From: Acidobacteriota bacterium
Lineage (GTDB): Bacteria; Acidobacteriota; Blastocatellia; Pyrinomonadales; Pyrinomonadaceae
Reading direction: 5' to 3'
Assembly (NCBI GenBank): GCA_046733535.1
Contig: JBKPPH010000055.1
Coordinates: forward strand, 285-64,284
Length of the DNA stretch: 64,000 bases
Shown here: piece after piece, positions 6,803-42,256 of the stretch
Layout of the letters: each line of letters begins with the position of its first letter
Position numbering within the stretch: position 1 is the first letter of the stretch
Position numbers and translations under genes: made by a program
Notes under the pieces: generated by a model
The model's input: only the letters and a program-made list of their open reading frames with translations
Database searches by the model: none
Told to the model about the DNA's origin: nothing

Positions 6803-7227
6803 TGCCCGGTGCAAATCCAATCATGTTCTACGACGGCGTGTGCGGGCTGTGCAATCGGCTGGTCCAATTTTTACTGAAGCACGATGAGCGTGGGCGCTTG
6901 CGTTTTGCGTCTTTGCAGAGCGACTTCGCGAAGAAGGTGTTGGGCCGGCATGGTATAGATCCGACGGACCTGGACACCGTTAACGTCGTGGTCAATTATG
7001 ACGAGCCGGATGAGCGAGTGCTGCAAAGGTCTGATGCGGTCCTTCGAGCAGGACGCGAGCTAGGTGGTTTTTGGGGCACGTCTTCGTCGATCGCCGGAGT
7101 CGTACCGCATGCGCTTCGCGATCTGGCCTACCGCTTCGTCGCTCAAAATCGATATCGCGTGTTTGGAAAATACGACACCTGCATGCTGCCCGATCCGAAT
7201 CAGAGGAGTAGATTCCTTGATATTTAA
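6802..7227 (+). CDS. DCC-family thiol-disulfide oxidoreductase (DUF393)
   Basis: N-terminal FYDGVCGLCNRLVQFLLKHD motif (C-x-x-C). ATG 6802 overlaps the upstream TGA (6800-6802). Confidence 0.8.
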   Translation: MPGANPIMFYDGVCGLCNRLVQFLLKHDERGRLRFASLQSDFAKKVLGRHGIDPTDLDTVNVVVNYDEPDERVLQRSDAVLRAGRELGGFWGTSSSIAGVVPHALRDLAYRFVAQNRYRVFGKYDTCMLPDPNQRSRFLDI

Positions 7228-8902: not shown

Positions 8903-8942
8903 ACGCAGATTAACGCAGATTAGATCTGCGTGAATCTGCGGC
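8892..8942. repeat. CRCRGAT 10-nt-periodic palindromic element (family 1)
   Basis: GCCGCAGAT-AA-ACGCAGAT-TA-ACGCAGAT TAG ATCTGCGT-GA-ATCTGCGGC. It contains the TAA stop (8900-8902) of the upstream gene. Confidence 0.85.
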
Positions 8943-8947
8943 TTAAG

Positions 8948-10027
8948 TCATACTTTGATAAAGATGCGCTTCCGGTAAAGTAACCACATTAAAAACAACC
9001 ACAGCAGGATAAACGCAATCGCATAAAACAGCGACGCATTGATCGGCGAGGCCCACGAGAGAAACAGCGTGCGAAAGATCCAACCCTGCACGTGCAGCAG
9101 TCCCATCAGCTTCACCATCAACCCTGTTCCGACAAACAGCGCGAGGGCGTTCACACCAAACACTTCAAACGGCCAGGCCCAACGGCGGTAGCCTTTGATG
9201 TCAATGAGCCAGTAACACAGCGCGAGCAGTTGCAACGCCAGCCCCGCCGTGAAGAGCACGTAAGAACTCGTCCACAGCGACTTATTGATCGGGAAGAACG
9301 GATTCCACACCCAGCCGAGTACGACACAAACAGCACCGGCAACGAACATCCCCACGACTTTCTCCATTCGCGTTCGTTCCGTGCGCAACCAGTGTCCGGT
9401 CAAGACGCCGAAGAGTGTCGTCGCCACCGCTGGAATCGTGCTGAGCAGACCTTCGGGATCGTAAACCTTGCCTTGTTTCCAGATGTGTGGTCCAAGGAGC
9501 ACTCGATCTATAAACGACGCGATACTTCCCTCCTTGCTCAGATCTCCCGCCGCAAATCCCGGAGCTGCGAGGCGAGTCATAACGAGGCAATAAACAATCA
9601 GCAGCGCCAAAGCGATCAGCAGTTGGGTCCTGATTCTCGTCGTGAGGAAGATCAGCGACGCGACGAGATAACAGATCGCGATGCGCTGTAGCACTCCGGG
9701 AATACGAATCGTGCCGAGTTGAAAATACGGAAAGCCGTTCAGAAACAGACCGAGACCAAAGATGATCGCCGTGCGCTTGATGACCTTGAGGTAGAGGTCG
9801 CGTTTGACGCCGCCTTCTTCGACGCGACGGCCGAACGCAAGCGTGATCGACACACCGACAATGAACAAGAAGAACGGAAAGACGAGATCGGTGGGCGTCC
9901 AGCCATGCCACTCTGCATGTTCCAGTGGCCAATAGATGCTGGACCAAGTGCCGGGATTGTTTACGAGCACCATTCCGGCGATCGTGAGCCCGCGAAAAAC
10001 GTCGAGCGACACCAGTCTGGACGACAT
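8948..10027 (-). CDS. Heparan-alpha-glucosaminide N-acetyltransferase-like acyltransferase (DUF5009/DUF1624), polytopic membrane protein
   Basis: [55 protein letters not shown] is the characteristic N-terminus. About 10 TM segments. The start is taken at MSSRL (ATG 10027). Confidence 0.7.
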
Positions 10028-10031
10028 AGGC

Positions 10032-10078
10032 CCACAGATTACCACGGATCAATCCGTCTTCATCCGCGTTTATCCGCG
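10032..10078. repeat. Family 1 palindromic element (imperfect) in a divergent intergenic region
   Basis: CCACAGAT-TAC-CACGGAT CA ATCCGTC-TTC-ATCCGCG-TTT-ATCCGCG. Confidence 0.7.
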
Positions 10079-10109
10079 TTCAGGATCGTGTTAAAGTATC
10101 CGCCCGTAC

Positions 10110-11138
10110 ATGTCATTAATGCTTGCGGAGATCGCCGAGCAACCGGCCGCCCTCGAACGCACGATCGCGGAAGAGCGCGTCAAGATCGCGAAACTCGGAA
10201 ACCTGCTGAAGGCTCGCGACATTCATCTCATCGTTCTCGTCGCTCGCGGTAGCTCCGACAACGCGGCCCTGTTTGGTCGTTATTTACTCGAAATCACAAC
10301 CGGCATCCCTGTTTCACTTTCTGCGCCCTCGGTCCATACGATCTACAACGCGCGTCTCAAGTTGGGCCACGCGTTAGTTGTCGGCGTTTCGCAATCAGGC
10401 GAAGGTGAAGACATCAATCGCGTTCTCGAAAGCGCTCGCCGTTCGGGCGCCTACACGATCGGCATCACGAATGAACCAAACTCGTCGATGACCGGGTTGG
10501 TAGATGAAACATTACAGACGCACGGTGGACGCGAGCGCTCCGTAGCCGCGACGAAAACTTTCACCGGCCAGATGCTCCTCTTTCATATGCTCGCCGCCGA
10601 GTTGGCCCAGACTCCTGCGCCGTACGAAGCGATTCCACAACTCGTCGCGGGCGCGCTCGAGCAAAAGCCCGCGATACTCGAGTTGGTCCAACGTTACGTG
10701 TTCATGGAAAACTGCGTCGTCGTCGGACGCGGCCTGGCCTACGCCAATGCTTACGAGCTCGCATTGAAACTGATGGAGACTTGTTATGTCGTCGCGGAGC
10801 GTTTCTCGTCAGCGGATTTTTTGCATGGACCACTGGCGATGGTCGAGCGCCACTTCCCGGTCATTCTTTTTGCCCCACCGGGTGTGATGTTGCCCGGCGT
10901 GAAGAGCCTGATCGAACGTCTCCGCGAGTTGCACGCCGACACTCTTGCGATCACGAGTGACATTGACGCGGCGAGTATGTGCACACGCTCGATCGTGATG
11001 TCTCGTGAGATTGATGAGTTTCTCGCGCCGATACCGTACATAGTTCCCGGTCAACTCTTCGCGGCGCTGCTGGCGGAGGCGAAGGGACTCGATCCGGATT
11101 CGCCGCGATCGTTGTCAAAAGTGACGCGGACGCTTTGA
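10110..11138 (+). CDS. SIS-domain sugar-phosphate isomerase/deaminase (GlmS C-terminal-like; AgaS/NagB-II type)
   Basis: AEIAEQPAAL..LVARGSSDNAALFGRYLLE..GVSQSGEGEDI..; two SIS repeats and no glutaminase domain. Confidence 0.75.
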   Translation: MSLMLAEIAEQPAALERTIAEERVKIAKLGNLLKARDIHLIVLVARGSSDNAALFGRYLLEITTGIPVSLSAPSVHTIYNARLKLGHALVVGVSQSGEGEDINRVLESARRSGAYTIGITNEPNSSMTGLVDETLQTHGGRERSVAATKTFTGQMLLFHMLAAELAQTPAPYEAIPQLVAGALEQKPAILELVQRYVFMENCVVVGRGLAYANAYELALKLMETCYVVAERFSSADFLHGPLAMVERHFPVILFAPPGVMLPGVKSLIERLRELHADTLAITSDIDAASMCTRSIVMSREIDEFLAPIPYIVPGQLFAALLAEAKGLDPDSPRSLSKVTRTL

Positions 11139-11148
11139 GCCACAAAAG

Positions 11149-11406
11149 ATGAAAATCGAGTTGAGAGATCGTTCCCACAATCCCGTGTACGCGCAGGTCC
11201 GCCAGCAGATCGAGAACGAGATCAAAGCGAAGACTGTTGCTCCAGGCGAATCGCTCCCCTCGCCCGCCGCGCTCGCGCAAAAACTCTCCGTCGACAAAGG
11301 CGAAATCCAGCGCGCCTACTACGAACTCGAACAACTCGGCCTCATCACGAAGCAGACCGGCAAAGACTTCCTCGGCAAGCCGCGAATCGATTACCGCGTC
11401 CGCTGA
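11149..11406 (+). CDS. Short GntR-family winged-helix regulator
   Basis: PVYAQVRQQIENEI..PGESLPSPAALAQKLSVDKGEIQRAYYELEQLGLI is a GntR-type HTH; the protein is 85 aa. Confidence 0.7.
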   Translation: MKIELRDRSHNPVYAQVRQQIENEIKAKTVAPGESLPSPAALAQKLSVDKGEIQRAYYELEQLGLITKQTGKDFLGKPRIDYRVR

Positions 11407-11463
11407 CACCTATTTTTTAAATCCTCACATCGCGTGCTATTCTTCATCGACGCTTTTTAACGA

Positions 11464-11548
<85 letters not shown>

Positions 11549-11564
11549 ACAGAATTGAATCAAA

Positions 11565-12893
11565 ATGAAAACCGAACTAATTGACGTCTCTCCAACTCGC
11601 AAAGAGATCAACATCGAGATCGAACCGGAACAAGTGCGCAGCGCTTACGATCGGGTGAGCCAGAATTACAGCAGAGCCGCGACTGTTCCCGGCTTTCGTC
11701 CCGGACATGCACCAACATCCGTAGTCCGCGCTCGATATAAAAGCGAGATCCAAACTGAAGTGCTGCGTGAGTTACTTCCCGAAGCCGTTCAGAATGCCGT
11801 TGCCGAACACAAATTGGCCGCTCTCGCCGAACCGCAGGTGCACTTTGACGACCAGGAGGGTCTCAAGGATTTCGGTCAACAGCCGCTGAAGGTCAGGGTC
11901 GAGGTCGAAGTCCTGCCCGAGATAACTCTGGACACTTATAAAGGACTGGAAGCCGAACGACGCACGCGGCCGGTAACAGACGCAGATATCGACCAGATGA
12001 TCGACAGCTTGCGCGACGCATCCGCCTCGCTCCAACCAGTCGAAGATCGCGCCTCCGTATTGGGCGACACCGTCACCATAAATGCACGCGGAAGAATGGT
12101 GGACGACGAACCGGAAGCGGAAGATATCAAAGTCGATGATGTTGAAGTAATTCTGGGCGGACCCGGCGTGATGCAGGAGTTCACGGAGAACCTGACCGGC
12201 GTCAAACCTGACGACACCCGCACGTTCACAGTCGATTATCCGCAAGACTACAACTCGGCCGGGTTGGCAGGAAAGAGCGTCGAGTATGTTGCTGAGGTAA
12301 CGGCCGTTAGACAGAAGGAACTGCCCGAGCTCGACGACGAATGGGCGAAAAGTCTCGGCGGAGACTTCGATTCCGTTGAGACACTCCGGGCAAAGGTGCG
12401 CGAAGATCTCGAGTCGAGATCGAAAGCCGAGTCTGATCGCGAGCTTCGCGACGACGTCCTGCGCAAATTGCTCGACGTGCACAAATTCGAAGTGCCGCAG
12501 AGCTTAGTAGATGAACAAACAAATTATCGGCTGGAAGGTGTAGCGCGCCAGATGATGGGGCGCGGCATCGATCCACGCCGCCCGGAGCTCAACTGGGAAG
12601 CGGCGCGCGAAGATGTGAAGGTGCAGGCCGAGGCAGATGTACGGGCAACAATGTTGCTTGAAAAGATTGCCGAAGCCGAGAATATCACCGTCTCGGATGA
12701 AGAAGTAGAAGCAGAAATTCAATCGATCGCAACTGCGTCACAACAACCGATAGAGCAAGTGCGTGCTGCCTTGACAAAGAATGGAGGCGAACGTAGCATC
12801 GCGCACAGATTGCGCAATCGTAAAGCGCTTGATCTTTTGATCGAAAACGCGCACGTAACGAACGCAGAGTGGGTCGAACCAAAGGAAGGTTAG
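11565..12893 (+). CDS. tig: Trigger factor
   Basis: 442 aa. The N-terminus reads ..[27 protein letters not shown]. Sits in the conserved tig-clpP-clpX-lon order. Confidence 0.93.
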
Positions 12894-12898
12894 ATTCT

Positions 12899-13483
12899 AT
12901 GGCTCTAGTCCCAATGGTCGTCGAACAAACGTCGCGAGGCGAGCGCGCCTTCGACATTTACTCACGACTACTGAAAGACAATATTATTTTCCTGGGTACC
13001 CCGATCGACGATCAGATAGCCAACCTTATCGTAGCCCAACTTCTATTTCTCGAAGCGGAAGATCCTGAAAAGGACATCAACCTCTATATCAATTCACCTG
13101 GTGGTTCGATCACCGCGGGAATGGCGATCTACGACACGATGCAATTCATTCGCCCGGACGTCACGACTATCTGCGTCGGACAATGCGCATCGATGGGAGC
13201 GCTGCTGCTGGCGGCCGGCGCAAAAGGAAAACGTTTCGCTCTTCCCAATTCGCGTATCCTCATTCACCAACCCTCAGGCGGATCGCAAGGTCAGGCAACA
13301 GACATCCGTATTCAAGCAGAAGAGATCCTGCGAATGCGCGAGCTCACCTCGCAAATCATCGCGAAGCACACAGGGCAGTCTTACGACACTGTCGAACGCG
13401 ATGTCGAGCGAGATAAAATTATGTCTGCCATGCAGGCCAAGGAATATGGTTTAATAGACGAGGTCATCGCGCACCGAGAGTAA
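12899..13483 (+). CDS. clpP: ATP-dependent Clp protease proteolytic subunit
   Basis: [48 protein letters not shown]. The start is taken at ATG 12899. Confidence 0.95.
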
Positions 13484-29726: not shown

Positions 29727-29807
29727 TAGCCTCAAAGTCAGACATCGGACTTGGAGACAGTGAGTACAGGGAGCGGTAGCGACCTGGTCAGTGATCAGCA
29801 TGCGATA
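29727..29807. repeat. About 80-bp intergenic element (family 3, GTACAGGGAGCGGTAGCGACCTGGTCA core)
   Basis: TAGCCTCAAAGTCAGAC..TTGGAGACAGTGAGTACAGGGAGCGGTAGCGACCTGGTCAGTGATCAGCATGCGATA. Nearly identical to the reverse complement of 40176-40264. Confidence 0.8.
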
Positions 29808-29815
29808 CGGCCGAG

Positions 29816-31954
29816 TTAATAGATCGTGAACTTGAACTGCTCCGAGGCGCTGGCTTTCTTTGTCTGGTCCGTGATCGTCACTTGCAACTCGTAATTGCCC
29901 GGCGGCAACGAGCTCAACGGAAACTCGCCCGTGTAAGGAATGTTCGTGAAGTTAGTCAGCTTCTCTGTTGAGATCTTTACCTCCGGCGGCGCGATCACGG
30001 CTTTGTTACCGTGCAGCACCTTGATCTGCGCACTCAACTGCGGCGGCGTACTCGCGTTGTAGATGTAAGCAGTGAAGCGCATCCGCGAGTTGCGAGCGAA
30101 GCGCCGGCTCGCATTCACGCCCACCGGCGTTGCTGCTGCCGACTCGCCGATCTCGCCCACGTACAAACTGCTGATCGCAAAACTTCCCGCCTTCACCTTC
30201 GGGATGTCGATCCACTCCATCGTGCTGGTCAGGTTCCTCGTTCCCAGTCCGCGCTCGTAAGCCAGAATCCGCACTTGATACAGTCCGGGCGGCACATCCA
30301 CCTGGTGATTCACGGTGGCGTAGAGCGGCGTCTGCGGGGGGGTGCGCGGCACTTCGATGCGTTGCTTGAAACTCCCCACCGCCTTGCCCTTCGAATCAAA
30401 CACCGCGCCTAACACGTTCGCATCGATCTTCCCTGAACTGTTGTCACGCGAGTGTGCGTTTAGCTGCACGGCGGAAGTGAGCTGCATGTTCGGTCCCGAG
30501 ATTTGTTTGTAGCCGAGTGCGAGGGCGGCATGCAGTTCTCCAGTTGAGGTTTCAGTCACGCCGAGCACGTCCGTGCTCTCGACCTGCACTGGAGCCGCCG
30601 CTTGCGCCTGCGCACTGTTCTTGTCGGGCGGTGGTCCAAGGTAGCCGCGTCGCAACTGCACTTTCAATTCCGGCCGTCCGGCGATCGTTACTTTTATCTT
30701 CGAGAAGTTTGAGACACGTTGTGCGTCGTTCGCCGGTCGCCAGGCAAGCAGGTAGTAACGCGAAGTTTCGTCGAGGGCGCGCGCGATGCCGCCAGCCAGA
30801 TCGTTCGAGTTCAGTAGCGCGCGTCCACCGGTGTCAGCCGCGAGTACGTGCAGCGGTTCCTGGATAAAGCTTCGTTCACCAGTCATTCGGCTTTGTAAGA
30901 TTCCGTATGGATCGAAACCACCGCTCGTACTCGCGTCGAGCGACGAGTCAACACTGAGTCCTTTAGCGTCCAACGTGTAGATAACAACAGCGCTGCGATT
31001 CGCAGCCCCGGTGACGCGACGTATCATCAAGGTGAAGTCAGAACCGGTAAAATTCGGAACAAAGCCGTCAGAAATGAAGAAGATGAGTTTGCGTCCTGAC
31101 AGTTTCGCCGTGGAGCTCATCAGATTCACGAGGGAGGAGAGGGCGTTTTTAACGGCGAGATCCGACTGGCGCAGGATCGTTCCCGCCCGCTGTCTAACGA
31201 GGGGCTCAGCAATTTCCCGCGGGACACGGTTGTCTTTGATCGTTTGCTGAACGAAATACTCGAACAGAGTCGGAGGCGGCGGTCCTTGCGAGCCGAAAGC
31301 GTCGCGCGGCACGTCACCTCGTTCAACGATCAGGTACGCCGCATAGGGACTCATGTACGGGCGTTGCCCGTCGGTAGCCATGCCCGGAACGAAATTGAGC
31401 CGGGCGAGGGCCGCACGCAAGACGACGGGGTTGTTAGTCAGTTGCTGGAGGAAACCGATTTGGCCACTCGACGAAGTGATCGCAACTTGATCGTTCGGGC
31501 CCATCATGCGCTCGATGAATTGCGTGACAGTTTTGTGTACGCGCGCAAGACTGCCCGGCTCGAGCATCAGATCGTTAATGAAAAACAAGATCGTGCGGCC
31601 ACGCTCCGACGCCGGCTCTTTGCTGTCGTCAACCACCTGCGACGGCTTCTTGCCACCCGCTGCTCGCAACGCCGCTACTTCACTTCTCCCACCGGTGACA
31701 ACACTGTCAAAGAAACTGATCGGCTGGGGTTGACCTTCGATAAGCAACTCGAAGTCTTCCTGCTTTAAGCCGCTGACGAACTTCCCGTCTTTATCAAAGA
31801 CCATCACGTCGGTCTGCACCAACTCCGTGTTGACGCGCACCACGTCGTCCGGGTCCTGAGGCTTGGGACTCGGCGACGGCTTCTTCTCCTGCGCGCGCGT
31901 CGTGAGAGAAAACGACAGCAGCGCTGCAACGAGAAAGATGAGCGTTTTGTGCAT
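29816..31954 (-). CDS. VWFA-related Acidobacterial-domain protein (TIGR03436-like), paralog A
   Basis: Signal peptide, then VVRVNTELVQTDVMVFDKDGKFVSGLKQEDFELLIEGQPQ (the family-defining N-terminal domain) and a VWA-like core (ILFFINDL..IFFISDG..IYTLDAKG). Confidence 0.8.
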   Translation of the reverse strand: MHKTLIFLVAALLSFSLTTRAQEKKPSPSPKPQDPDDVVRVNTELVQTDVMVFDKDGKFVSGLKQEDFELLIEGQPQPISFFDSVVTGGRSEVAALRAAGGKKPSQVVDDSKEPASERGRTILFFINDLMLEPGSLARVHKTVTQFIERMMGPNDQVAITSSSGQIGFLQQLTNNPVVLRAALARLNFVPGMATDGQRPYMSPYAAYLIVERGDVPRDAFGSQGPPPPTLFEYFVQQTIKDNRVPREIAEPLVRQRAGTILRQSDLAVKNALSSLVNLMSSTAKLSGRKLIFFISDGFVPNFTGSDFTLMIRRVTGAANRSAVVIYTLDAKGLSVDSSLDASTSGGFDPYGILQSRMTGERSFIQEPLHVLAADTGGRALLNSNDLAGGIARALDETSRYYLLAWRPANDAQRVSNFSKIKVTIAGRPELKVQLRRGYLGPPPDKNSAQAQAAAPVQVESTDVLGVTETSTGELHAALALGYKQISGPNMQLTSAVQLNAHSRDNSSGKIDANVLGAVFDSKGKAVGSFKQRIEVPRTPPQTPLYATVNHQVDVPPGLYQVRILAYERGLGTRNLTSTMEWIDIPKVKAGSFAISSLYVGEIGESAAATPVGVNASRRFARNSRMRFTAYIYNASTPPQLSAQIKVLHGNKAVIAPPEVKISTEKLTNFTNIPYTGEFPLSSLPPGNYELQVTITDQTKKASASEQFKFTIY

Positions 31955-31958
31955 CAGG

Positions 31959-34085
31959 TTAATATACCGTGAACTTGAACTGCTCCGAGGCGCTGGCTTT
32001 TTTTACCTGGTCCGTGATCGTCATTTGCAACTCGTAATTGCCCGGCGGCAACGAGCTCAACGGAAACTCGCCCGCGTACGGAATCGTCGTGAAGTTAGTC
32101 AGCTTGTCCGTCGAGATCTTTATCTCCGGCGGCGCAATCACCGCCTTGTTGCCGTGCATTACTTTGATCTGTGCCGTCAATTGCGGCGGCGTGCCGGCGT
32201 TGTAGATGTACGCCGTAAACCGCATCTTTGAATTGCGTCCAAAACGCCGGCTCGCGTTCACACCGACCGCCGCTGCTGCTCCTGACTCGGGGATCTCGCC
32301 CACGTACAAACTGCTGATCGCAAAACTTCCCGCCTTCACTTTCGGGATGTCGATCCACTCCATTGCGCCGGTTAGGTTCGTAACCGTCATTGCGCGTTCG
32401 TACGCCAGGATACGTACTTGATACAGTCCCGGCGGCACCTCCATCTGATGGTTCACCGTTGCGTACAGCGGAGCCTGCGCCGGCGTGCGCGGCACCTCGA
32501 TGCGTTGCTTGAAACTTCCTACCGGCTTGCCCTTTGAATCAAACAAGGCGCCCAATACGTTGACGTCAACCTTCCCCGAACTGTTGTCGGGCGAGTGCGC
32601 ATTGAGCTGCACGGCCGTCGTCAGTTGCATGTTGGGACCAGCGGTTTGTTTGTACCCGAGGCCAATGGCAGCGTGCAGTTCTTCAGTGGAGGTCTCCGTC
32701 ACGCCCAACGGGTCGGTGTTTTCAACTTGCACGGACGCCGCTGCTTGAGCCGCAGTGGTTTTATTCTTCTCGGGCGGTGGTCCAAGGTAACCACGCCGCC
32801 ACTGCACTTTCAGATCAGGTTGGCCGGCAATCGTGATTTTGATCTTGGAGAAGTTTGACGCCCGCTGCACGTCGTTGCTGGGGCGCCACGCGAGCAGGTA
32901 GTAACGCGAGGTTTCGTCGAGCGCACGCGCGATACCGCCTGTCAGATCGTTGGAGTTGAGGAGCGCGCGTCCACCGGTGTCGGCGGCGAGCGCGTGCAGC
33001 GGTTCCTGTGTAAAAGTTAGCTCACCGCTCATCCGGCTGCGCATGACACCCGAGACGTCGAAACCGCCGCCGGTACTTGCATCGAGCGACGAGTCAACAC
33101 TCAACCCGCGCGCGTCCAACGTGTAGATGACAACGCTGCTGCGGTTCGCAGAACCCGTGACACGACTCATCAACGTGGTGAAATCCGATCCACCAAACTG
33201 CGGTACAAAACCGTCGGATATGAAGAATACGAGTTTGCGCCCTGGCACCTTGGCCGTCGCGCGCACGAGATTCACGAGCGAAGCGAACGCTGTTCTGATA
33301 GTTGCTTGTGCGCTGCGAAGAGTCGTGCCCACCCTCCGTTCGACCATAGCCGTAGCTATCGGACGGTCGTCGGGGTCTTTCATCGTATTCTGTTTTATTG
33401 TTTCCCGAACGAAGTATTCAAACAGGTCGCGGTCATTGCGTTCGCCGATCAGGTAGGCGGCATAATCGCTCATCGGAGGACGCTCGGCGTCGGTGGCCGC
33501 ACCTGGAACAAATTTTATTCGATCGAGAGCAGCGCGAAGTACAATCGGGTTGTTTGTCAGTTGCTGAAGAAACCCAATCTGCCCGCTCGCCGACGTGATC
33601 GCCACCTGGTCGTTTGGACCGAGCATCGTATCGATAAACTGTCCGATCGTTTTGTTTACGCGCGCGAGGCTGCCCGGCGCAAGGTGCAGGTCGTTAACGA
33701 AGAATAGAATCGTGCGTCCGCGTTCAGAACCCGGTTCGGCTGGTTCCTCGACGACGGGTTGCGCGTGTTTCTTGCCGCTACCGGCACGCAGCGCGGTTGT
33801 CTCGTTTCGGCCACCCGTCACCACGCTCTCAAAAAATGCGATCTGCTGTGCTTGACCGTCGACGAGTAACTCGAAGTTTTCCGGTTTCAATCCGCTGACA
33901 AACTTTCCCTGCTTGTCAAAGACCATTACGTCGGTCTGCACCAGTTCCGTGTTCACGCGCACCACGTCCTCAACCTCTGGGGGCGTAGAGCTCGGCGACG
34001 GCGACGGCTTTTGCTTTTTGTCCTGCGCGATAACCGAGGTAATCGACAGGAAGGCAACAATGATTGGGAGGGTTGTTTTATGCAT
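31959..34085 (-). CDS. VWFA-related Acidobacterial-domain protein, paralog B
   Basis: Collinear with paralog A over its full length, and only 4 nt separate the two genes. Confidence 0.8.
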   Translation of the reverse strand: MHKTTLPIIVAFLSITSVIAQDKKQKPSPSPSSTPPEVEDVVRVNTELVQTDVMVFDKQGKFVSGLKPENFELLVDGQAQQIAFFESVVTGGRNETTALRAGSGKKHAQPVVEEPAEPGSERGRTILFFVNDLHLAPGSLARVNKTIGQFIDTMLGPNDQVAITSASGQIGFLQQLTNNPIVLRAALDRIKFVPGAATDAERPPMSDYAAYLIGERNDRDLFEYFVRETIKQNTMKDPDDRPIATAMVERRVGTTLRSAQATIRTAFASLVNLVRATAKVPGRKLVFFISDGFVPQFGGSDFTTLMSRVTGSANRSSVVIYTLDARGLSVDSSLDASTGGGFDVSGVMRSRMSGELTFTQEPLHALAADTGGRALLNSNDLTGGIARALDETSRYYLLAWRPSNDVQRASNFSKIKITIAGQPDLKVQWRRGYLGPPPEKNKTTAAQAAASVQVENTDPLGVTETSTEELHAAIGLGYKQTAGPNMQLTTAVQLNAHSPDNSSGKVDVNVLGALFDSKGKPVGSFKQRIEVPRTPAQAPLYATVNHQMEVPPGLYQVRILAYERAMTVTNLTGAMEWIDIPKVKAGSFAISSLYVGEIPESGAAAAVGVNASRRFGRNSKMRFTAYIYNAGTPPQLTAQIKVMHGNKAVIAPPEIKISTDKLTNFTTIPYAGEFPLSSLPPGNYELQMTITDQVKKASASEQFKFTVY

Positions 34086-35185: not shown

Positions 35186-36634
35186 ATGCGCGCCATGAAA
35201 ACCAAAATCACACTTCTTGCGCTGCTCTTTTGTTTTGTCATCAACTCGTTCGCGCAGCAGGCGCCCGAGCGCCAGCAGTTTATACGTACCGAAGCGCCCG
35301 TAGTTGCCTTGACTCACGTGCGCGTCATTGACGGCACTGGCGCGCCGCCGAAGGAAGACCAAACAATCATAATCACTGACGGAAAGATTCAGTCGGTTGA
35401 CGCGAGTGCTGCGGCGCGCATACCGGCGAATGCGCAGACGCTGGATCTCAACGGCTACACGGTGCTGCCCGGCCTCGTGGGAATGCATAACCACATGTTC
35501 TTTCCGATGGGTGGCTCGCCGCCGATGTACTCCAACATGGGCATAAGCTTTCCACGCCTGTACCTCGCTCTCGGCGTCACGACGATTCGCACGACGGGCA
35601 GCGTTGCGCCGTACGCCGATCTCGAGATCAAGAAACTGATCGATGCCGGGCGGATGATCGGACCAAAGATGCACATCACCTCGCCGTATCTCGAAGGGCG
35701 CGGGTCGTTCACACCCGTGATGCACACGCTCACCGGTCCGGACGATGCACGACGGATGGTCAACTACTGGGCCGACCTCGGCGCGACTTCGTTCAAGGCG
35801 TACATGAATATCTCTCGCGAGGAGTTGCGCGCGGCCGTTCAGGAGGCGCACAAGCGCGGGCTTAGAGTCACCGGACATCTCTGTTCGATCGGTTACAAAG
35901 AGGCAGCAGAGATCGGCATCGACAATCTCGAACACGGTTTGTTTGCAGATTCGGAATTCGTTCCGAACAAAGAGCCGGACAAGTGCCCGCAGGGCGTGTC
36001 GAACAGTTTGCGTTCCCTCGATCTGAACGGCCCCGCGGCACAGGAGACGATTCGCACACTCGTTTCGAAAAACGTCGCCATTACTTCAACGCTGCCAGTC
36101 TTCGAAGCGGGAGGCGCGCCGCTGGCTGCAAACGGAATCGGCGCCAGCAGCGCGTTGCTGAACCAGCGTGTGCTGAATGTGATGTCGACTGACGCTCGCG
36201 TGCGTTACCTGCAAGCACGCGCGCGCGTTTCGCCTGAGGCAAACTTCGTCGCCCTCCTGCGGAAGGCGATGGACTTCGAGCGTGAGTTTGTGAAGGCGGG
36301 CGGCCTGCTGATCGCAGGACTCGATCCGACTGGCAACGGCGGGATTGTCGCCGGCTTCGGCGATCTGCGTGAAGTTGAACTGCTGGTCGAGGCGGGATTC
36401 ACCCCGGTTGAAGCCATCAAGATCGCGACACTGAACGGCGCGAAGTTTCTGGGTGAAGACACGCGCATCGGGTCGATCGCGACCGGCAAACAGGCTGACT
36501 TGATGGTCGTGAAAGGAAATCCAGCCGCGACGATCGGCGACATCGAGAACGTCGAGATCGTTTTCAAAGACGGGGTTGGGTACAACTCCGAAAAGTTAAT
36601 CCAATCCGTCCAGGGTCTCGTCGGCATTCGTTAA
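35186..36634 (+). CDS. Secreted amidohydrolase-family protein (imidazolonepropionase/Xaa-Pro dipeptidase-like)
   Basis: Signal peptide; LPGLVGMHNHMF (HxH); C-terminal ADLMVVKGNP..IENVEIVFKDG. ATG 35195 is an alternative start. Confidence 0.75.
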   Translation: MRAMKTKITLLALLFCFVINSFAQQAPERQQFIRTEAPVVALTHVRVIDGTGAPPKEDQTIIITDGKIQSVDASAAARIPANAQTLDLNGYTVLPGLVGMHNHMFFPMGGSPPMYSNMGISFPRLYLALGVTTIRTTGSVAPYADLEIKKLIDAGRMIGPKMHITSPYLEGRGSFTPVMHTLTGPDDARRMVNYWADLGATSFKAYMNISREELRAAVQEAHKRGLRVTGHLCSIGYKEAAEIGIDNLEHGLFADSEFVPNKEPDKCPQGVSNSLRSLDLNGPAAQETIRTLVSKNVAITSTLPVFEAGGAPLAANGIGASSALLNQRVLNVMSTDARVRYLQARARVSPEANFVALLRKAMDFEREFVKAGGLLIAGLDPTGNGGIVAGFGDLREVELLVEAGFTPVEAIKIATLNGAKFLGEDTRIGSIATGKQADLMVVKGNPAATIGDIENVEIVFKDGVGYNSEKLIQSVQGLVGIR

Positions 36635-36779
36635 ATCATACCTCCACGCCCGTCAGCCCTCACTTTGTGTCTGCCGGGCGTTGTTGTTCCCCGCCCCGCC
36701 TCGAAATGATTTTGCTCTCTGAGCCATAGATGTAAGGAAAAGCCATTTCCAAAAAAGCTCACCGACAGAGGGACAAATC

Positions 36780-39700
36780 ATGAATAACAACGGAGAAGCC
36801 GCCGAGCCGACGAGGGAAATATTTTTTTGCGAGATCCTGCTCGAAGAGTACGAGGGGCTAAATCAACCAGGGTTGGATGAGGCAGAAGTTCGAGACATAA
36901 GGAATCAACTAAACCATTACCGGACTACGGTTGGATGCCCTCACCGGGAGCCCCAACCAGTGTTCGAGGGCCGCATATTGAAACGTATCTACCGGTTGAT
37001 GTACGAGGCCCAGGAGCGGACCGCTGAACAGAGCGCTCTTTCGGCGGGCGAAAAAGACTGTGACAAGGAGTGTTTGAGCCAGGCGGGAGCGCTTGCCACT
37101 ATCAGCGACATTAGTATCGGGATCCCAACCCTCAACGGCAATCTGGCGGGACACCACGGCTCGCTCATACCGGAACAACGGGAGAAGCTTGCCGGCTGTA
37201 CGCTTCGGTCGGCGCTTTGTTTGTCCGGCGGCGGCGTTCGCAGCGCAACCTTTAATTTAGGAATTCTCCAGGGTCTGGCGCGACATGGATTGCTGGATAA
37301 GTTTGACTATCTTTCCACCGTTTCGGGCGGAGGTTTTATCGGTGGGTGGCTGTCCGCGTGGATACGCCGCAACGGGATAAATGAGGTCGTCGATGAGCTC
37401 GCAAAGCCGCCCAAGACACCACTGACGCCCGATCCCAATCAAGTCGAACATCTTCGCATCTACAGCAATTACCTGAGTCCGCGGCCGGGTTTGCTGAGCG
37501 CTGACACATGGACTCTGGTGGCCAGCGTCGTCCGCAATCTAATGCTTAACTGGCTGGTGTTTGTGCCGGTATTTCTGGCATTTCTCCTCGTGCCACGAAT
37601 GTGGATTTCCGCTCTCATAAGCAGCGCTAAGTATCAGTCGTATACGATTCCAATCTCACTCGCAATTGGATTTCTCTCCGGACTCTGGGCTCTTTCCTAT
37701 ATTGGACGAAACCTGCCGAGCTCCCAGGATTACCGTTCGGTGAAGCCGAATCCCAAGTGCTACAAAGTCGAAGAAGGAAGATTTATCTCGCGTTGCTTGA
37801 TTTGGCTGGTTGTCAGTGCGGCGGCATTGGCGATGTGTCTTTGGACTTGCTGTCAGCCGGGCAGTCCACCGCTTCCGTGGTACTACTACCCGGCATTCCT
37901 GGCAGTGACGAGCCTTTTAGCGTGGATCTCCGCCGCTTGGAAAATCAGCAAGATCACTCCAAATGAGAAAAAGAATAGCCGTTATTTAGGTATGCTCTTG
38001 AAGGCGACAGGGATCATCGTTCTACTCGTCCCTTTAATTCTCGGGGTGATCGTCAGCTACATAATTAGTCGCGGCCTTCCAACATTCCATCAGCATCCTG
38101 TTAGTTACGCCGTGTTCTCTGTTCCCGTCATCCTGCTGCTCATGGGGATTAAAGGGGTACTCATTACCGGTTTTACAAGCCGCTTCAGTAGGGATCAGGA
38201 TCAAGAGTGGTGGGCGCGCGCGGGCGGTTGGGTGTTGATTGTCGTGCTTGCGTGGAGCGCAGTGCATCTGCTGGTGCTGTATGGCCCGTTGCTGCTTTTA
38301 AGCCTCGGTCGTATGTATCAGACCTTGACCACGACAAGTAAAGGTTTGAGCGGACTTGCCTGGAGGGACTGGGGAAAATTGCTCGCGACCGTCGCGGGTA
38401 TTGTCTCTGGAATTGTGACAATCATCGGCGGTTTTAGTGCGAAGACGCCGGCTAATTCCAAAGAAGCGGAAAAGGCGGGCACCGGAGGAATTTTTCTCGG
38501 TTTTGCCACTCAAGTGCTGGCTCCGGTGTTCCTTGGTTTTCTGATTGTCCTGCTCTCCTTCGCAACCAACTGGATTTTGATCAGCCGGCCGTCTCGGATC
38601 ATCAGCAACTTCGTCGGAGGCGCAGTCGTTCCGTACCTGACTCACCCGGTAGCCGCCTGGCACATGACGCTGCTCAAAACGACGCCTTTTCGGCTCCTCG
38701 TGGGGCTGGCAATCCTGATAGCGGTGTTTGGCGCTGTTATGAACTGGATGATCAGCACGAATGTCTTCTCTCTCCAATACCTCTGGCGCAACCGAATCAT
38801 TCGTGCCTATCTCGGCGCCTCTCATTGCAACCGGCGCCCGGATCGCTTCACGGGCTTCGACAGTTTCGACAATCTGCAGATGCATGAGTTGTGGCCGCAA
38901 CCCGGCCATGGTGACACGTGCACCGAGCGAGAAGACCGGCCCCAGGAAGATTTGGTACCGGTTCGTCACTCACGAAAACTCTTTCACGTTTTGAATATGG
39001 CCCTGAACCTAACGGGTGGAGAAAAGCTTCAGTGGCAAGATCGCCGGGCCGAGTCGTTCACAGTTTCTCCGCTTCATGCGGGCAGCTACTGGCTGGGTTA
39101 TCGTCGCTCTACAGAGTATGGCGGAGACGACGGCATCACGCTCGGAGCGTCCATCGCGATCTCCGGTGCGTTCGTGAGCCCAAACATGGGCTTCATGATG
39201 ACGTCACCGGTGGTGCGATTTCTGATGGCGGTCTTCAATGTCAGGTTTGGGTGGTGGATGGGTAATCCAGGACCTGCGGGCGAGGATACGTTCAAGCGCG
39301 ACACTCCCAAACTTTCCGTGCTTCCATTCCTTGCGGAAGCGTTCGGCACTATCGACGACAAATCTCGCTACGTTTACCTTTCTGATGGCGGTCACTTCGA
39401 AAACCTCGGTCTGTACGAAATGGTTTTGCGGCGCTGTCGCTTTATCGTCGTCAGCGATGCGACGACGGATCCGGATTACTCGTTTCAATCATTGGCGATG
39501 TCCATCAGGCAGATCCGCGTTGATCTCGGAGTGCCCATTGAAATTCCCGAGATGGCAGTCGGCGTACCATCTCAGAACCTGAAGAGTAAGTATTGCGCGA
39601 TCGGCAGGATAGCCTATTCCTGTGTCGACAAGGCTCCGGGAGATTCGAGACCAAACGAAGACTTCGACGGCATTCTGATTCTGATTAAACCCTCGCTCAT

Positions 39701-40037
39701 CGGTCGAGAGCCACGCGACGTGATCAATTACTGGCAGGGTCGTTCAACGTTCCCGCAGGAGACTATCACCGACCAATGGTTTAGTGAGGCGCAGTTTGAA
39801 AGTTATCGCACTCTCGGTTCGTCGATCATCGATGCGATTTATCCGGACCGCGAACGCAAAATGACGCTGGAATCGTTTGCGCAGAGCGCACAAGCACACA
39901 ACGAACTCCGATTTGATGCGTTCCGGGAGCAGATCGGCCTGCTTGCGCTGGAGCACAAGTTCAAAGAAGTGATGCAGGACGCTCCGGATTCCTACGGCTC
40001 GAAGGTGCGTGATTTTATGAAGACGATGCTTCGTTAA
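36780..40037 (+). CDS. Patatin-like phospholipase interrupted by a polytopic membrane domain
   Basis: GGGVRS oxyanion motif (37227-37244). TVSGG nucleophile elbow (Ser codon 37323-37325). About 10-11 hydrophobic helices across aa 235-700. LSDGGHFENLG with the dyad Asp codon at 39384-39386. AGAGGGA RBS. Confidence 0.8.
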   Translation: MNNNGEAAEPTREIFFCEILLEEYEGLNQPGLDEAEVRDIRNQLNHYRTTVGCPHREPQPVFEGRILKRIYRLMYEAQERTAEQSALSAGEKDCDKECLSQAGALATISDISIGIPTLNGNLAGHHGSLIPEQREKLAGCTLRSALCLSGGGVRSATFNLGILQGLARHGLLDKFDYLSTVSGGGFIGGWLSAWIRRNGINEVVDELAKPPKTPLTPDPNQVEHLRIYSNYLSPRPGLLSADTWTLVASVVRNLMLNWLVFVPVFLAFLLVPRMWISALISSAKYQSYTIPISLAIGFLSGLWALSYIGRNLPSSQDYRSVKPNPKCYKVEEGRFISRCLIWLVVSAAALAMCLWTCCQPGSPPLPWYYYPAFLAVTSLLAWISAAWKISKITPNEKKNSRYLGMLLKATGIIVLLVPLILGVIVSYIISRGLPTFHQHPVSYAVFSVPVILLLMGIKGVLITGFTSRFSRDQDQEWWARAGGWVLIVVLAWSAVHLLVLYGPLLLLSLGRMYQTLTTTSKGLSGLAWRDWGKLLATVAGIVSGIVTIIGGFSAKTPANSKEAEKAGTGGIFLGFATQVLAPVFLGFLIVLLSFATNWILISRPSRIISNFVGGAVVPYLTHPVAAWHMTLLKTTPFRLLVGLAILIAVFGAVMNWMISTNVFSLQYLWRNRIIRAYLGASHCNRRPDRFTGFDSFDNLQMHELWPQPGHGDTCTEREDRPQEDLVPVRHSRKLFHVLNMALNLTGGEKLQWQDRRAESFTVSPLHAGSYWLGYRRSTEYGGDDGITLGASIAISGAFVSPNMGFMMTSPVVRFLMAVFNVRFGWWMGNPGPAGEDTFKRDTPKLSVLPFLAEAFGTIDDKSRYVYLSDGGHFENLGLYEMVLRRCRFIVVSDATTDPDYSFQSLAMSIRQIRVDLGVPIEIPEMAVGVPSQNLKSKYCAIGRIAYSCVDKAPGDSRPNEDFDGILILIKPSLIGREPRDVINYWQGRSTFPQETITDQWFSEAQFESYRTLGSSIIDAIYPDRERKMTLESFAQSAQAHNELRFDAFREQIGLLALEHKFKEVMQDAPDSYGSKVRDFMKTMLR

Positions 40038-40107
40038 CAGTTTAGCCGCGAAGAGGCACAAAAGCTCAAAACCGGCATGGCTTTGGCTCAAAACTCGAAG
40101 ATCATTC

Positions 40108-40264
40108 TTGGAGAAAGTCAGTACAGGGAGCGGTAGCAACCTGGTCAACGATTGGAGTCAAAAATCTTTAGGAAATATCGCATGCTGATCACTGACCAGG
40201 TCGCTACCGCTCCCTGTACTGACCGTCTCCAAGCCTGACGTCTGACTTTTGAGTCAGGCTAACC
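40108..40264. repeat. Family 3 element: truncated copy plus full inverted copy forming a long hairpin
   Basis: Left arm TTGGAGAAAGTCAGTACAGGGAGCGGTAGCAACCTGGTCA (40108-40147). Right arm TGACCAGGTCGCTACCGCTCCCTGTACTGACCGTCTCC (40193-40230). The full copy spans 40176-40264. Confidence 0.8.
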
Positions 40265-40290
40265 GGCATTGATGGTTTTGTGCTTTGTGC

Positions 40291-40992
40291 TTAAGGTTTT
40301 GTGACCTCAAGCCCTGTGACAAGAACTTCGGTGTTGTGTGCGAAGCGAAGGCCGTAAACGCCGTCAGTTGATTTGAGCTTGCCGGTGGTGACGAGGTCTG
40401 ATTTGTTATAACTCGCAACCACCTTTTTATTGATCGCACACTCGACCTTGTCGCCCTTCACTGACATCGCGATTTCCTGTGTTACGGGTTCGCCCGGGCC
40501 GGCTGCTTTGTTAACTGCCGGATCCGCCGCACCGCGTGGTCCATTCATTTGAAATGGGTCTGGTCCAAAACCGCGCACGATGAAGTTGCCGGTGCCGTAC
40601 GCTGCGCAGTACAAGTAACTCTGCTGGCCCGTTCCCAGATCGTTGCCCGCGATCATTAACCCGTAAGGATGAGGGTGGTTATTGAGGTTCATGTACTTCG
40701 GTTCCTTGAACGTCGCTTTGACTGTGTAATCGCCAGTCGCTTTGTTCGCGGGATTCCAGTAAGTTACTGCGGGTCCGGTAATGACGTGCAAGGCGTTGCC
40801 CTCGTTAGACAACTTCGCGCTGTTGAGTGTCATGCCGGCGAGTTCTTCTTTAACATCGATCTTTCCGGTCCAGCCGGGGACAGAGATTCCGCCGCCGGCG
40901 ACGCCGCGCGAAGTTTCCATCTGCCCACCCTGAGAGAAATGTGCGGCCGGCAGTGACAGAATTGCTAGAGCTAGAGCAGCAAGGTAACGCAT
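40291..40992 (-). CDS. Secreted jelly-roll protein (LamG/DUF1080-like; weak call)
   Basis: Signal peptide MRYLAALALAILSLPAAH and GGAGG RBS. Beta-rich sequence with YTVKATFKEP..GLMIAG..YGLRFAHN. The start is taken at ATG 40992. Confidence 0.5.
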   Translation of the reverse strand: MRYLAALALAILSLPAAHFSQGGQMETSRGVAGGGISVPGWTGKIDVKEELAGMTLNSAKLSNEGNALHVITGPAVTYWNPANKATGDYTVKATFKEPKYMNLNNHPHPYGLMIAGNDLGTGQQSYLYCAAYGTGNFIVRGFGPDPFQMNGPRGAADPAVNKAAGPGEPVTQEIAMSVKGDKVECAINKKVVASYNKSDLVTTGKLKSTDGVYGLRFAHNTEVLVTGLEVTKP

Positions 40993-41038: not shown

Positions 41039-41326
41039 ATGGCAGAAGAGAAAATACTGACCAAACATCCGCAAGGCAAGAGCGGACGAAACATCAGCAA
41101 GGAATCTTACGACCAGCTCACAACCGCGATCCTGTCGGCACTGCAAAAGAAAGAGCTAACGCACGACGAATTGTTCGAGCAGCTCAATAAGAATTTGAAA
41201 GGTAAGTTCTCGGGGAATATCAGTTGGTATGGTGAGACGGTGAAGCTCGATCTCGAAGCGAGGAAGATCATCGAGCGGACGGGTTCCAAACCTCAGACGT
41301 ATCGAGTGCTACCCGGTAAGAAGTAA
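41039..41326 (+). CDS. Small conserved hypothetical protein (DUF6958-like; recalled from memory)
   Basis: MAEEKILTKHPQGKSGRNISKESYDQL..ISWYGETVKLDLEARKIIER; GGGGA RBS. Its 3-prime end overlaps the convergent gene by 34 nt. Confidence 0.45.
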   Translation: MAEEKILTKHPQGKSGRNISKESYDQLTTAILSALQKKELTHDELFEQLNKNLKGKFSGNISWYGETVKLDLEARKIIERTGSKPQTYRVLPGKK

Positions 41327-41673
41327 GCCGAAGCCTGGCGGCGAAAGACGAAGTACAGAATCACGGCAAAGATTACCACGTGCAGCAACAACTGCATGAC
41401 GGAATGAAGGGCACTGACGACTACGTGGAACACCATCCAAACAACGAGGAGCCAGCGTGCCCAATTGCGGCCGTAGAGCATGAACACCCCCGCAACCACT
41501 GCGATCATCCGCGCCAGATAAACCATCCAGTGTGCTTTTAACTCCGGAATCCATTGTGCAAAGGTGATACCGCCGAGTGGCAGCAATGCAGCGATGAGGG
41601 AGATGCTGCCGAAAACGATGAATACCCAACCAATAATGGTGATGGATCGCGGGCGCGGGTGCATGCGAGCCAT
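41293..41673 (-). CDS. Small integral membrane protein (4 TM)
   Basis: From MARMHPRPRSITIIGWVFIVFG..; four hydrophobic segments. The start is taken at ATG 41673. Confidence 0.5.
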   Translation of the reverse strand: MARMHPRPRSITIIGWVFIVFGSISLIAALLPLGGITFAQWIPELKAHWMVYLARMIAVVAGVFMLYGRNWARWLLVVWMVFHVVVSALHSVMQLLLHVVIFAVILYFVFRRQASAYFLPGSTRYV

Positions 41674-41681
41674 ATGATAAC

Positions 41682-42182
41682 TTAACGCAAACGGATCCTG
41701 CGCCGGTAAAACAGGACGCCTCCAGCGAGGGCCAAAGCAGCGGCGCCACCACCACCAAACATCAACCACCGATAACCCGCTGAAGAGGAAGCAGACAATT
41801 TATTCTGAGGCCGCGCGCTTTCCTGATACGCACGCGCTTCAGCATTTGCGATTGCAGTTTCCAAACGCTGCCGGCTCGTCTGCAATAAATTGAGTTGCGC
41901 CTGCACACCCTCTCTTTCGATCGTCAACTGGCGACGTCGCGTCTCACGCAACTCCTCAGGCTTCGTCGAACCGATTCCCGCCAGCGAATGCTCGATGTTT
42001 TCAGGTTTCAAACTCTCATCGAGCTGCTGCACCCGAACGCGCAGAGCCTCTTCCTTGGTCTGCACCTCGAGTAACTGTGCCCTTAGTTTCTCGACAGATT
42101 CCGCGGCACTCGAGGACTCCTGCGCCTTCGTTGTCACCGTAAAAATCGAAACCAACAAGACCAGAAATAATGTGGCCTTCAT
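41682..42182 (-). CDS. Secreted coiled-coil protein with C-terminal TM anchor
   Basis: Signal peptide MKATLFLVLLVSIFTVTTKA. Heptad-like, E/Q/R/L-rich middle. C-terminal WLMFGGGGAAALALAGGVLFYRRR. Confidence 0.5.
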   Translation of the reverse strand: MKATLFLVLLVSIFTVTTKAQESSSAAESVEKLRAQLLEVQTKEEALRVRVQQLDESLKPENIEHSLAGIGSTKPEELRETRRRQLTIEREGVQAQLNLLQTSRQRLETAIANAEARAYQESARPQNKLSASSSAGYRWLMFGGGGAAALALAGGVLFYRRRIRLR

Positions 42183-42256
42183 CGCCGCCTCCAGGACGTT
42201 CAAGCATTGTCGACGTCTCGATAGTAACGCGAAAATCAGGCCAAAAGTGTGTCAGG

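Follow-up and report, generated by a model that had tools for sequence, protein, structure and literature searches.

The 64,000-nucleotide (nt) stretch of contig JBKPPH010000055.1 (assembly GCA_046733535.1) of an Acidobacteriota bacterium analysed here, hereafter referred to as the window, harbors on its forward strand a gene encoding a putative membrane-embedded lipase of 1,085 amino acids (aa). Judging from its motifs and modelled fold, the lipase belongs to the patatin/cytosolic phospholipase A2 (cPLA2) superfamily (FabD/lysophospholipase-like), and its catalytic Ser and Asp motifs are separated by a block of ten predicted transmembrane helices. We estimate a probability of roughly 55% that the enzyme is a stand-alone integral inner-membrane Ser-Asp phospholipase, which acts on the cell's own lipids. 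The gene is an ordinary member of a large unstudied family, and a full-text literature search yielded no description of the split membrane-patatin architecture.

Catalytic motifs, predicted fold and recurrence of the split architecture

The initial annotation described one gene for a patatin-superfamily Ser/Asp enzyme, in which a polytopic membrane block separates the two catalytic motifs. This description is supported: the single open reading frame (ORF) was confirmed, and the coordinates given for GGGVRS, Ser182, Asp869 and two N-terminal Cys motifs (CPH and CDKEC) all proved exact when re-checked. The features of the ORF and its predicted catalytic and membrane regions are:

36780..40037 (+): whole ORF, 1,085 aa plus stop; predicted membrane-embedded patatin/cPLA2-like lipase
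37206..37499 (+): catalytic N-half, aa 143-240 (Pfam, alignment and predicted secondary structure)
37227..37244 (+): oxyanion/phosphate loop G150-G-G-V-R154-S (GGGVRS; sequence and alignment)
37323..37325 (+): TCG codon of the nucleophile Ser182, within T-V-S-G-G (sequence)
37500..38759 (+): ten-helix membrane block, aa 241-660 (hydropathy and AlphaFold2 helices)
38760..39839 (+): catalytic C-half, aa 661-1020, alpha/beta region with the dyad Asp (alignment and model)
39384..39386 (+): GAT codon of Asp869, within LSDGGHFENLG (sequence)

The G-G-G-x-[RK] loop that follows the first strand in members of the superfamily corresponds to S149-G-G-G-V-R154, which follows a predicted strand at aa 144-149 and leads into a helix (aa 152-168). 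The G-x-S-x-G nucleophile elbow is represented by T180-V-S182-G-G, located between a strand (aa 177-181) and a helix (aa 183-198). Beyond this N-half, long helices (aa 241-657) are followed by an alpha/beta region, in which a strand at aa 864-868 runs directly into D869-G-G, the counterpart of the D-G-[GA] motif. Ser182 and Asp869 are 687 residues apart. In an alignment of 117 full-length relatives from multiple phyla, residues S149-G150-G151-G152 and R154, V181-S182-G183-G184-G185 and the Y866-L867-S868-D869-G870-G871-H872-F873 block are invariant, far beyond chance expectation, and T180 reaches at least 90% conservation, with mean identities to these relatives of 69% for the catalytic N-half and 58% for the catalytic C-half. 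The Pfam Patatin domain (PF01734) matches aa 146-208 (Bitscore: 38.7, with a cut-off of 27.7; e-value: 1.5e-9), but this match spans only positions 1-61 of the 191 in the profile, and an NCBIfam search of the lipase returned no match.

An AlphaFold2 model built from the 117-sequence alignment takes the form of one compact body, with a mean predicted local distance difference test (pLDDT) score of 88.5, values below 50 being restricted to aa 1-7 and 99-125. The predicted template modelling score (pTM) reaches 0.87 over 1,085 residues, and the N-half, membrane block and C-half are therefore confidently placed relative to one another. This model supersedes a first one based on 30 close homologues (pLDDT 67.3), in which the C-half was disordered and the Foldseek matches were non-significant. 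When the final model was compared with the PDB by means of Foldseek, the best match was human cPLA2-alpha (1CJY; e-value: 2.6e-4; probability: 1.00; 427-448 columns), and human cPLA2-delta (5IZ5; e-value: 4e-3; probability: 1.00) was likewise recovered. These two are the only significant fold relatives in the PDB, with a low template modelling score (TM-score) of 0.30 per target that denotes likeness of the core only. Potato patatin, VipD, ExoU and CapV align over just 90-134 columns (e-values >0.1), the CapV alignment (8ZR9) comprising 117 columns at an e-value of 0.75. The closest fold is that of cPLA2, and not that of potato patatin or CapV, the patatins cited in the initial annotation. The cPLA2 match, which covered approximately 100 columns (e-value ~0.3) with the poor model, extends over 427-456 columns (e-value: 2.6e-4) with the good one because the C-half is now confidently modelled. 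The predicted structure argues that the N-half and C-half belong to one catalytic domain, and the structural check proposed in the initial annotation, with its confident single body and significant cPLA2 matches, gave no sign that the two halves fail to fold together.

Sequence profiles detect this relationship only in part. A full-length profile compared with the PDB retrieved nothing relevant, and a profile of the catalytic domain from which the membrane block had been spliced out produced weak matches to the N-half only (VipD, e-value: 0.023; ExoU, 0.5; cPLA2, 1.4-1.5). A sub-threshold hidden Markov model (HMM) alignment pairs YLSDGGHFENL of the lipase with YIADGGILDNM of VipD at the DGG motif. 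When aligned by hhalign with a 288-aa patatin encoded in the same genome, only 58 N-terminal columns could be matched. Foldseek comparison with BFVD identified no significant viral structure match.

The split architecture recurs widely. A word-indexed search of 5.8 billion proteins gave more than 6,500 matches, and the best 120 of these are almost all full-length, share at most 90% identity with the window protein and derive mostly from Pyrinomonadaceae/Blastocatellia metagenome bins. When 1.84 billion cluster representatives were scanned exhaustively with HMMER, 16,603 matched at E<=1e-3, and 6,767, drawn from many phyla, at E<=1e-30; the latter must share the rest of the protein, because the 60-residue patatin segment cannot score so high. 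Among contigs representing one genome per species, at least 593 loci were found, with a conserved core corresponding to aa 143-1040. They belong to Acidobacteriota, Verrucomicrobiota, Nitrospira, Gemmatimonadota, Bacteroidota (Spirosoma), Chloroflexota (Limnocylindria), Desulfobacterales, Geobacter and the Alpha-, Beta- and Gammaproteobacteria. Both motifs, [ST][VIA]SGG[GS] and [ST]DGG[HN][FY], are present in 322/331 relatives at a spacing of 570-1,085 residues (median 695), and the stretch in between contains seven or more hydrophobic segments. The search for the same split in other genomes, suggested in the initial annotation, thus shows that it is no frameshift or fusion artefact. Given the invariant catalytic residues and the recurrent split, the lipase appears to be kept under selection as an active Ser/Asp catalyst, with the separation of Ser and Asp as the defining trait of the family.

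Membrane block, proposed mechanism and terminal regions

Kyte-Doolittle hydropathy and the AlphaFold2 helices delineate ten membrane-length segments within aa 246-659, with cores at approximately aa 246-268, 288-308, 337-357, 369-390, 405-428, 441-465, 483-507, 531-552, 572-598 and 637-659 and helix pLDDT values mostly between 85 and 98. The polytopic block of about 10-11 hydrophobic helices recognised in the initial annotation stands, with the count fixed at ten rather than eleven, and the long predicted helices with their positive-inside bias favor the membrane-spanning reading of this region. Because the number of helices is even, both catalytic halves are expected on one side of the membrane, and the charge bias and loop conservation suggest that this is the cytoplasmic face. 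Loops on the inferred cytoplasmic side contain 19 Lys and Arg residues versus nine in those outside, and show twofold higher conservation (0.50 versus 0.25; Mann-Whitney p=4e-9). Among them, conservation is highest in the junction loops and the loop at aa 466-482 (TSRFSRDQDQEWWARAG), while the best-conserved helices are transmembrane helix (TM) 1, which contains R252 and N253, TM6 and TM7. Among the polar residues of the block, N253, E476 and W492 are invariant and R252, D474 and R480 near-invariant. This pattern agrees with cooperation between the cytoplasmic face of the membrane block and the catalytic domain. The lipase lacks a signal peptide, and TM1 comes after 240 soluble, acidic residues. 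With Foldseek, no PDB or BFVD structure matched the membrane block with a probability above 0.25, the best PDB matches (XylE, TTYH, MurJ and similar) reaching at most 0.23.

We suggest that, at the cytoplasmic face, the Ser-Asp dyad is formed by joint folding of the N-half (aa 143-240) with the C-half (aa 661-1020), and that the ten-helix block would hold the active site against the cytoplasmic leaflet and probably open it to that leaflet. TM1, TM6-TM7 and the loop at aa 466-482 would then probably make up the route that takes a bilayer phospholipid to Ser182. The substrate phosphate would be bound by R154, a residue that fits a phosphate-bearing substrate in light of the known cPLA2 and patatin enzymes. 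The predicted reaction is that of a phospholipase A or lysophospholipase, removing a fatty acyl chain from glycerophospholipids or lysophospholipids of the cell itself. A more specific and tentative proposal, which we regard as doubtful, is that the ten-helix block, far from being a passive anchor, constitutes a lateral lipid portal or gate that feeds bilayer phospholipids directly into a cPLA2-type site and may respond to membrane damage, packing or oxidised chains. Were this true, the lipase would represent a new class of intramembrane-fed phospholipases, comprising more than 6,000 sequence clusters from diverse bacterial phyla and possessing a membrane fold without a solved relative.

The catalytic and membrane regions are flanked by two poorly conserved helical regions:

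36780..37199 (+): aa 1-140, a helical module at the N-terminus that varies between lineages; contains EILLEEYEGL; disorder at aa 99-125
39840..40034 (+): aa 1021-1085, a weakly conserved helical tail at the C-terminus

The AlphaFold2 model places three confident helices (aa 16-26, 34-49 and 59-95; pLDDT >90) within aa 1-95, and a further three (aa 1030-1040, 1045-1066 and 1070-1084) in the C-terminal tail. Mean identity to the relatives is 12% for the N-terminal module and 17% for the tail, the latter with an occupancy of 61%. A Pfam search found no domain, and thus no C2 domain, in aa 1-140, a region that is all-helical in the model. The module is common to 80/176 N-terminally extended relatives as determined with jackhmmer, and its EILLEEYEGL segment belongs to a motif (LLxEVLLEEYxxL / EE[YF]xx[LI]) that occurs in 74/176 of them, across several phyla. 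The two Cys motifs noted initially are present (CPH at aa 53 and CDKEC at aa 94, the latter bordering a low-confidence linker in the model), but are not conserved, given the low identity of the module. The long extensions at the N- or C-termini of 35 relatives yielded no known domain, including sensor and nucleotide-binding domains, with the sole exception of one PG_binding_1 domain. The variable N-terminal helical module may be regulatory; the sensor or autoinhibitory role initially envisaged for the membrane insertion finds no support, and no known sensor domain was recognised in the variable N-termini of the relatives. The lipid-gated character suggested in the initial annotation is purely speculative.

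Genomic context, distribution and alternative functions

Within the open frame, which begins at 36723, the ATG at 36780 is the first start codon. A putative ribosome-binding site precedes it, in line with the initial annotation:

36767..36773 (+): Shine-Dalgarno-like AGAGGGA, ending 6 nt before the ATG (from sequence)

A scan of 36500-40400 for a sigma-70-like promoter was negative. The G+C content of the gene (54.3%) is similar to that of the window (55.9%). The neighbouring genes in the window encode tandem 712/708-aa paralogues, a metallophosphoesterase, an amidohydrolase, a 269-aa protein with no Pfam match, an OmpR-TPR regulator and a major facilitator superfamily transporter, and the same neighbours flank the copy in another species (L001) whose protein shares 73% identity with the window lipase. 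The tandem paralogues (29816-31954 and 31959-34085, both on the reverse strand) share 74% identity from end to end, and their N-termini are hydrophobic; for the 708-aa copy, Pfam yielded no match at E<=0.001. Two overlapping ORFs of 158 and 173 aa (41293-41769 and 41682-42203, both on the reverse strand) likewise lack Pfam matches, one being hydrophobic and the other combining a signal-like N-terminus with a coiled-coil-like central part.

The nested palindromic cluster downstream of the ORF, initially tied to the lipase gene, is instead part of a genome-wide repeat. Its arms (40084-40152 and 40188-40256) are 69 nt each and 81% complementary, and the 258-nt spacer folds at -131.5 kcal/mol (z=-11.8). 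The 17-nt core GTACAGGGAGCGGTAGC occurs in 143 copies in the 5.24-Mb assembly, including another in the window at 29764-29780. The copies mostly form inverted pairs approximately 82 nt apart, often within 100 nt of contig ends. The palindrome is a dispersed repeat resembling repetitive extragenic palindromes or miniature inverted-repeat transposable elements (REP/MITE-like), and not gene-specific; it probably breaks the assembly, and may act as a terminator at the lipase gene.

The lipase gene is accessory, being present in 8/41 close relatives (6/26 when restricted to good genomes) and in 30/299 good genomes of the phylum, which represent 26/191 genera. A comparison with same-genus genomes lacking the lipase showed the amidohydrolase gene to be present and synteny lost, with no clean insertion site. 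Forty-one plasmid records contain relatives, some on large plasmids, and a tblastn search of 50,697 phage records revealed no encoded relative. Members of the family include proteins of Azospirillum ramasamyi (WP_111069335.1), Methylobacterium radiotolerans (WP_012329697.1, on pMRAD01) and Paracoccus versutus (WP_036760297.1), which show the same split and 30-40% identity over aa 144-1020 but carry a different N-terminal module or none. The plasmid/chromid copies in Azospirillum, Methylobacterium and Paracoccus are situated amid metabolic genes, and distant copies on Bradyrhizobium, Rhizobium and Burkholderia plasmids amid hypothetical genes, with a RelE/ParD pair near one. The genome analysed here itself holds a 1,298-aa paralogue (Ser253, Asp1102) on another contig (locus L094; C64), which shares 52% identity with the window lipase in the C-half and 35% in the N-half plus membrane block. 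At 3807-13173 (reverse strand), it is arranged head-to-tail on one strand with three genes, which encode a 1,158-aa patatin with DUF3376, a PhzF-like protein and a Pyr_redox_3 flavoprotein.

Clustering of 921 ORFs from 80 loci brought to light no conserved operon partner, the largest neighbour cluster being present in just 11/80 loci and reflecting lineage synteny. This cluster comprises a Pyr_redox_3 flavoprotein following the lipase gene, exclusively in Acidobacteriota (Pyrinomonadaceae synteny), and is the same flavoprotein as that near the paralogue. The 120 immediate neighbours represent 117 different Pfam families, the commonest of which occurs in six. A c-type cytochrome-like partner, adjacent in 4/80 loci, was also considered and rejected, as it differs in family from the di-haem peroxidase beside the Methylobacterium copy. 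In the loci concerned (L013, L058, L071 and L072; Verrucomicrobiota, Alphaproteobacteria and Gammaproteobacteria), a 565-867-aa protein with two CxxCH haem-binding motifs adjoins the lipase, while the pMRAD01 copy adjoins a di-haem cytochrome c peroxidase. No cyclase, chaperone or secretion partner is present in the window or as a recurrent neighbour.

A PADLOC search of the lipase gave no family match at E<=1. PADLOC models match 7/120 immediate neighbours, five of which are one HerA-like gene syntenic in Nitrospira, and at most 9/113 second neighbours, nearly all with different models. The approximately 14/233 flanking genes matched (~6%) are scattered and form no recurrent defence system. 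Infection-sensing or signal-making operon partners (CD-NTase, STAND, TIR and similar) were found neither in the window nor as recurrent members of the 120 immediate neighbours of the relatives.

Several points weigh against the interpretation of the lipase as a phospholipase acting on its own membrane. The enzyme class, the substrate and the topology are predictions from the sequence and the model. The rebuilt Ser182-Asp869 dyad is inferred from the pTM, the motif invariance and the fold match, and the Foldseek alignment, with its TM-score of 0.30, comes without residue ranges, such that coverage of both halves by one alignment is not demonstrable. At the sequence level, the C-half matched no patatin or cPLA2 by Pfam, PDB or hhalign comparison. 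The PADLOC rates among flanking genes stand without a background control, and the patchiness, paralogy, plasmid location and variable N-termini would also fit a conflict or defence gene. Finally, a distant member (30% identity) on the conjugative plasmid pBb323S2c of Bradyrhizobium barranii (L095, 1-8421) is located directly downstream of genes for WYL-domain, MPN/JAB-family and canonical 403-aa patatin proteins, an arrangement that looks like a conflict-system region.

The last two points bear on an alternative that we consider unlikely, namely that the gene encodes a single-gene abortive-infection or defence lipase, which is held off by its N-terminal module or membrane block until a phage cue or membrane perturbation frees it to destroy the membrane of its own cell. 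Known patatin lipases such as CapV act as defence effectors, and the patchy occurrence, paralogues, variable N-termini and plasmid relatives would suit such a role, as would the Bradyrhizobium arrangement and the RelE/ParD pair described above. However, neither a PADLOC match, a recurrent partner nor a sensor or nucleotide-binding domain in the 35 long relatives accompanies the family, and the contexts in the window and in most annotated cases are metabolic, with synteny retained in the species carrying the 73% identical protein. The abortive-infection link drawn in the initial annotation is not borne out by the lipase or its 233 flanking genes. Because partner, defence signature and sensor domain are all missing, we favor, albeit weakly, an accessory role in membrane-lipid turnover or remodelling in soil bacteria over a part in a defence system.

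It is also conceivable, though quite improbable, that the enzyme functions as a transacylase or acyltransferase, transferring an acyl chain from a membrane phospholipid to another lipid or membrane acceptor held by the ten-helix block and thereby producing a specialised lipid. cPLA2 and patatin enzymes are known for transacylase and lysophospholipase activities, the large conserved membrane block with its invariant polar residues (N253, E476, W492) exceeds the needs of an anchor, and the paralogue shares one strand with the DUF3376-type patatin, PhzF-like and flavoprotein genes. Against this, the lipase contains no recognisable acceptor-binding domain and has no biosynthetic gene as a conserved neighbour; transacylation and hydrolysis cannot be separated at the sequence level.

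An inverted topology, with periplasmic catalytic halves that target either outer-membrane lipids or the inner membrane from its outer leaflet, is very improbable. A few relatives start with hydrophobic N-terminal segments and one long relative carries the peptidoglycan-binding domain, but the missing signal peptide, the acidic soluble 240 aa before TM1 and the distribution of Lys and Arg (19 versus 9) are at odds with it. Lastly, the unusual length of the Ser-Asp spacing is all that might suggest a decayed pseudo-enzyme or two genes joined through a frameshift or misassembly. Such an artefact is refuted by the same uninterrupted architecture in complete plasmids from cultured strains and in thousands of independent assemblies, and by the invariance of all catalytic residues.

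Comparison with known patatin and cPLA2 enzymes

The Group IV cPLA2 enzymes, to whose structures (cPLA2-alpha 1CJY; cPLA2-delta 5IZ5/5IXC/5IZR) the model was likened, have in common with the window lipase the GGGxR loop, the Ser and Asp of the dyad, which is a predicted one in the lipase, and a long Ser-Asp spacing. In cPLA2-alpha, the dyad (Ser228/Asp549) is separated by a cap. This cap is soluble in cPLA2, whereas the window lipase has ten predicted transmembrane helices between Ser and Asp, and would be permanently integrated in the membrane rather than recruited to it by Ca2+. The window lipase is furthermore bacterial and lacks a C2 domain, and its sequence likeness to cPLA2 is confined to the first 60-70 residues. 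As it has no match at E<=1 to the Pfam PLA2_B domain (PF01735), and PDB cPLA2 chains are reached only through the GGGxR segment (E=1.4-1.5), its sequence places it outside the cPLA2 family proper.

The canonical bacterial patatins (RssA-type, the CBASS effector CapV, ExoU and VipD) share with the lipase the N-half recognised by Pfam Patatin and the D-G-G motif, with VipD, ExoU and the 288-aa patatin of the same genome aligning over the GGGxR-to-GxSxG segment. Their dyad residues lie approximately 115-200 residues apart in one soluble domain, in contrast to the far wider spacing in the window lipase, the C-half of which is unrecognisable by sequence. In addition, the first Gly of the canonical GxSxG motif is replaced by a near-invariant Thr in the window lipase family. 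With neither a PADLOC match nor a partner, the lipase also falls, by its sequence, outside the defence patatins.

A patatin-type catalytic domain tied to the membrane is likewise found in PNPLA6/NTE and PlpD/FplA. NTE has an N-terminal helix before an intact patatin domain and PlpD a C-terminal beta-barrel, and the catalytic domains of both are uninterrupted. Whereas these proteins are anchored at one end, the patatin domain of the window lipase is interrupted by 420 residues. Pfam searches identified no cNMP-binding, POTRA or barrel domains in the lipase, which is not NTE-like.

Patatin/cPLA2 enzymes are soluble interfacial enzymes that must first dock on the membrane, a step regulated by Ca2+ and C2 domains, lids, cofactors or cyclic nucleotides. 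The presence of ten helices inside the catalytic domain would remove this docking step, and raises the questions of how a lipase living in its own substrate stays harmless, what the membrane block selects or gates, and why such a gene persists in approximately one in ten soil-bacterial genomes. Two thirds of the length of the family lack a Pfam model, and it has no structure; in public databases its members are annotated as 'patatin-like phospholipase family protein' or 'hypothetical protein', labels that hide a distinct membrane-enzyme class of interest for lipid enzymology and membrane-protein structure. Members occur in cultured, genetically tractable Methylobacterium, Paracoccus, Azospirillum and Rhizobium, making these questions directly testable in a lipase that, by its predicted fold, stands closest to cPLA2 and differs from it, from the canonical patatins and from NTE and PlpD in carrying its membrane region within the catalytic domain.

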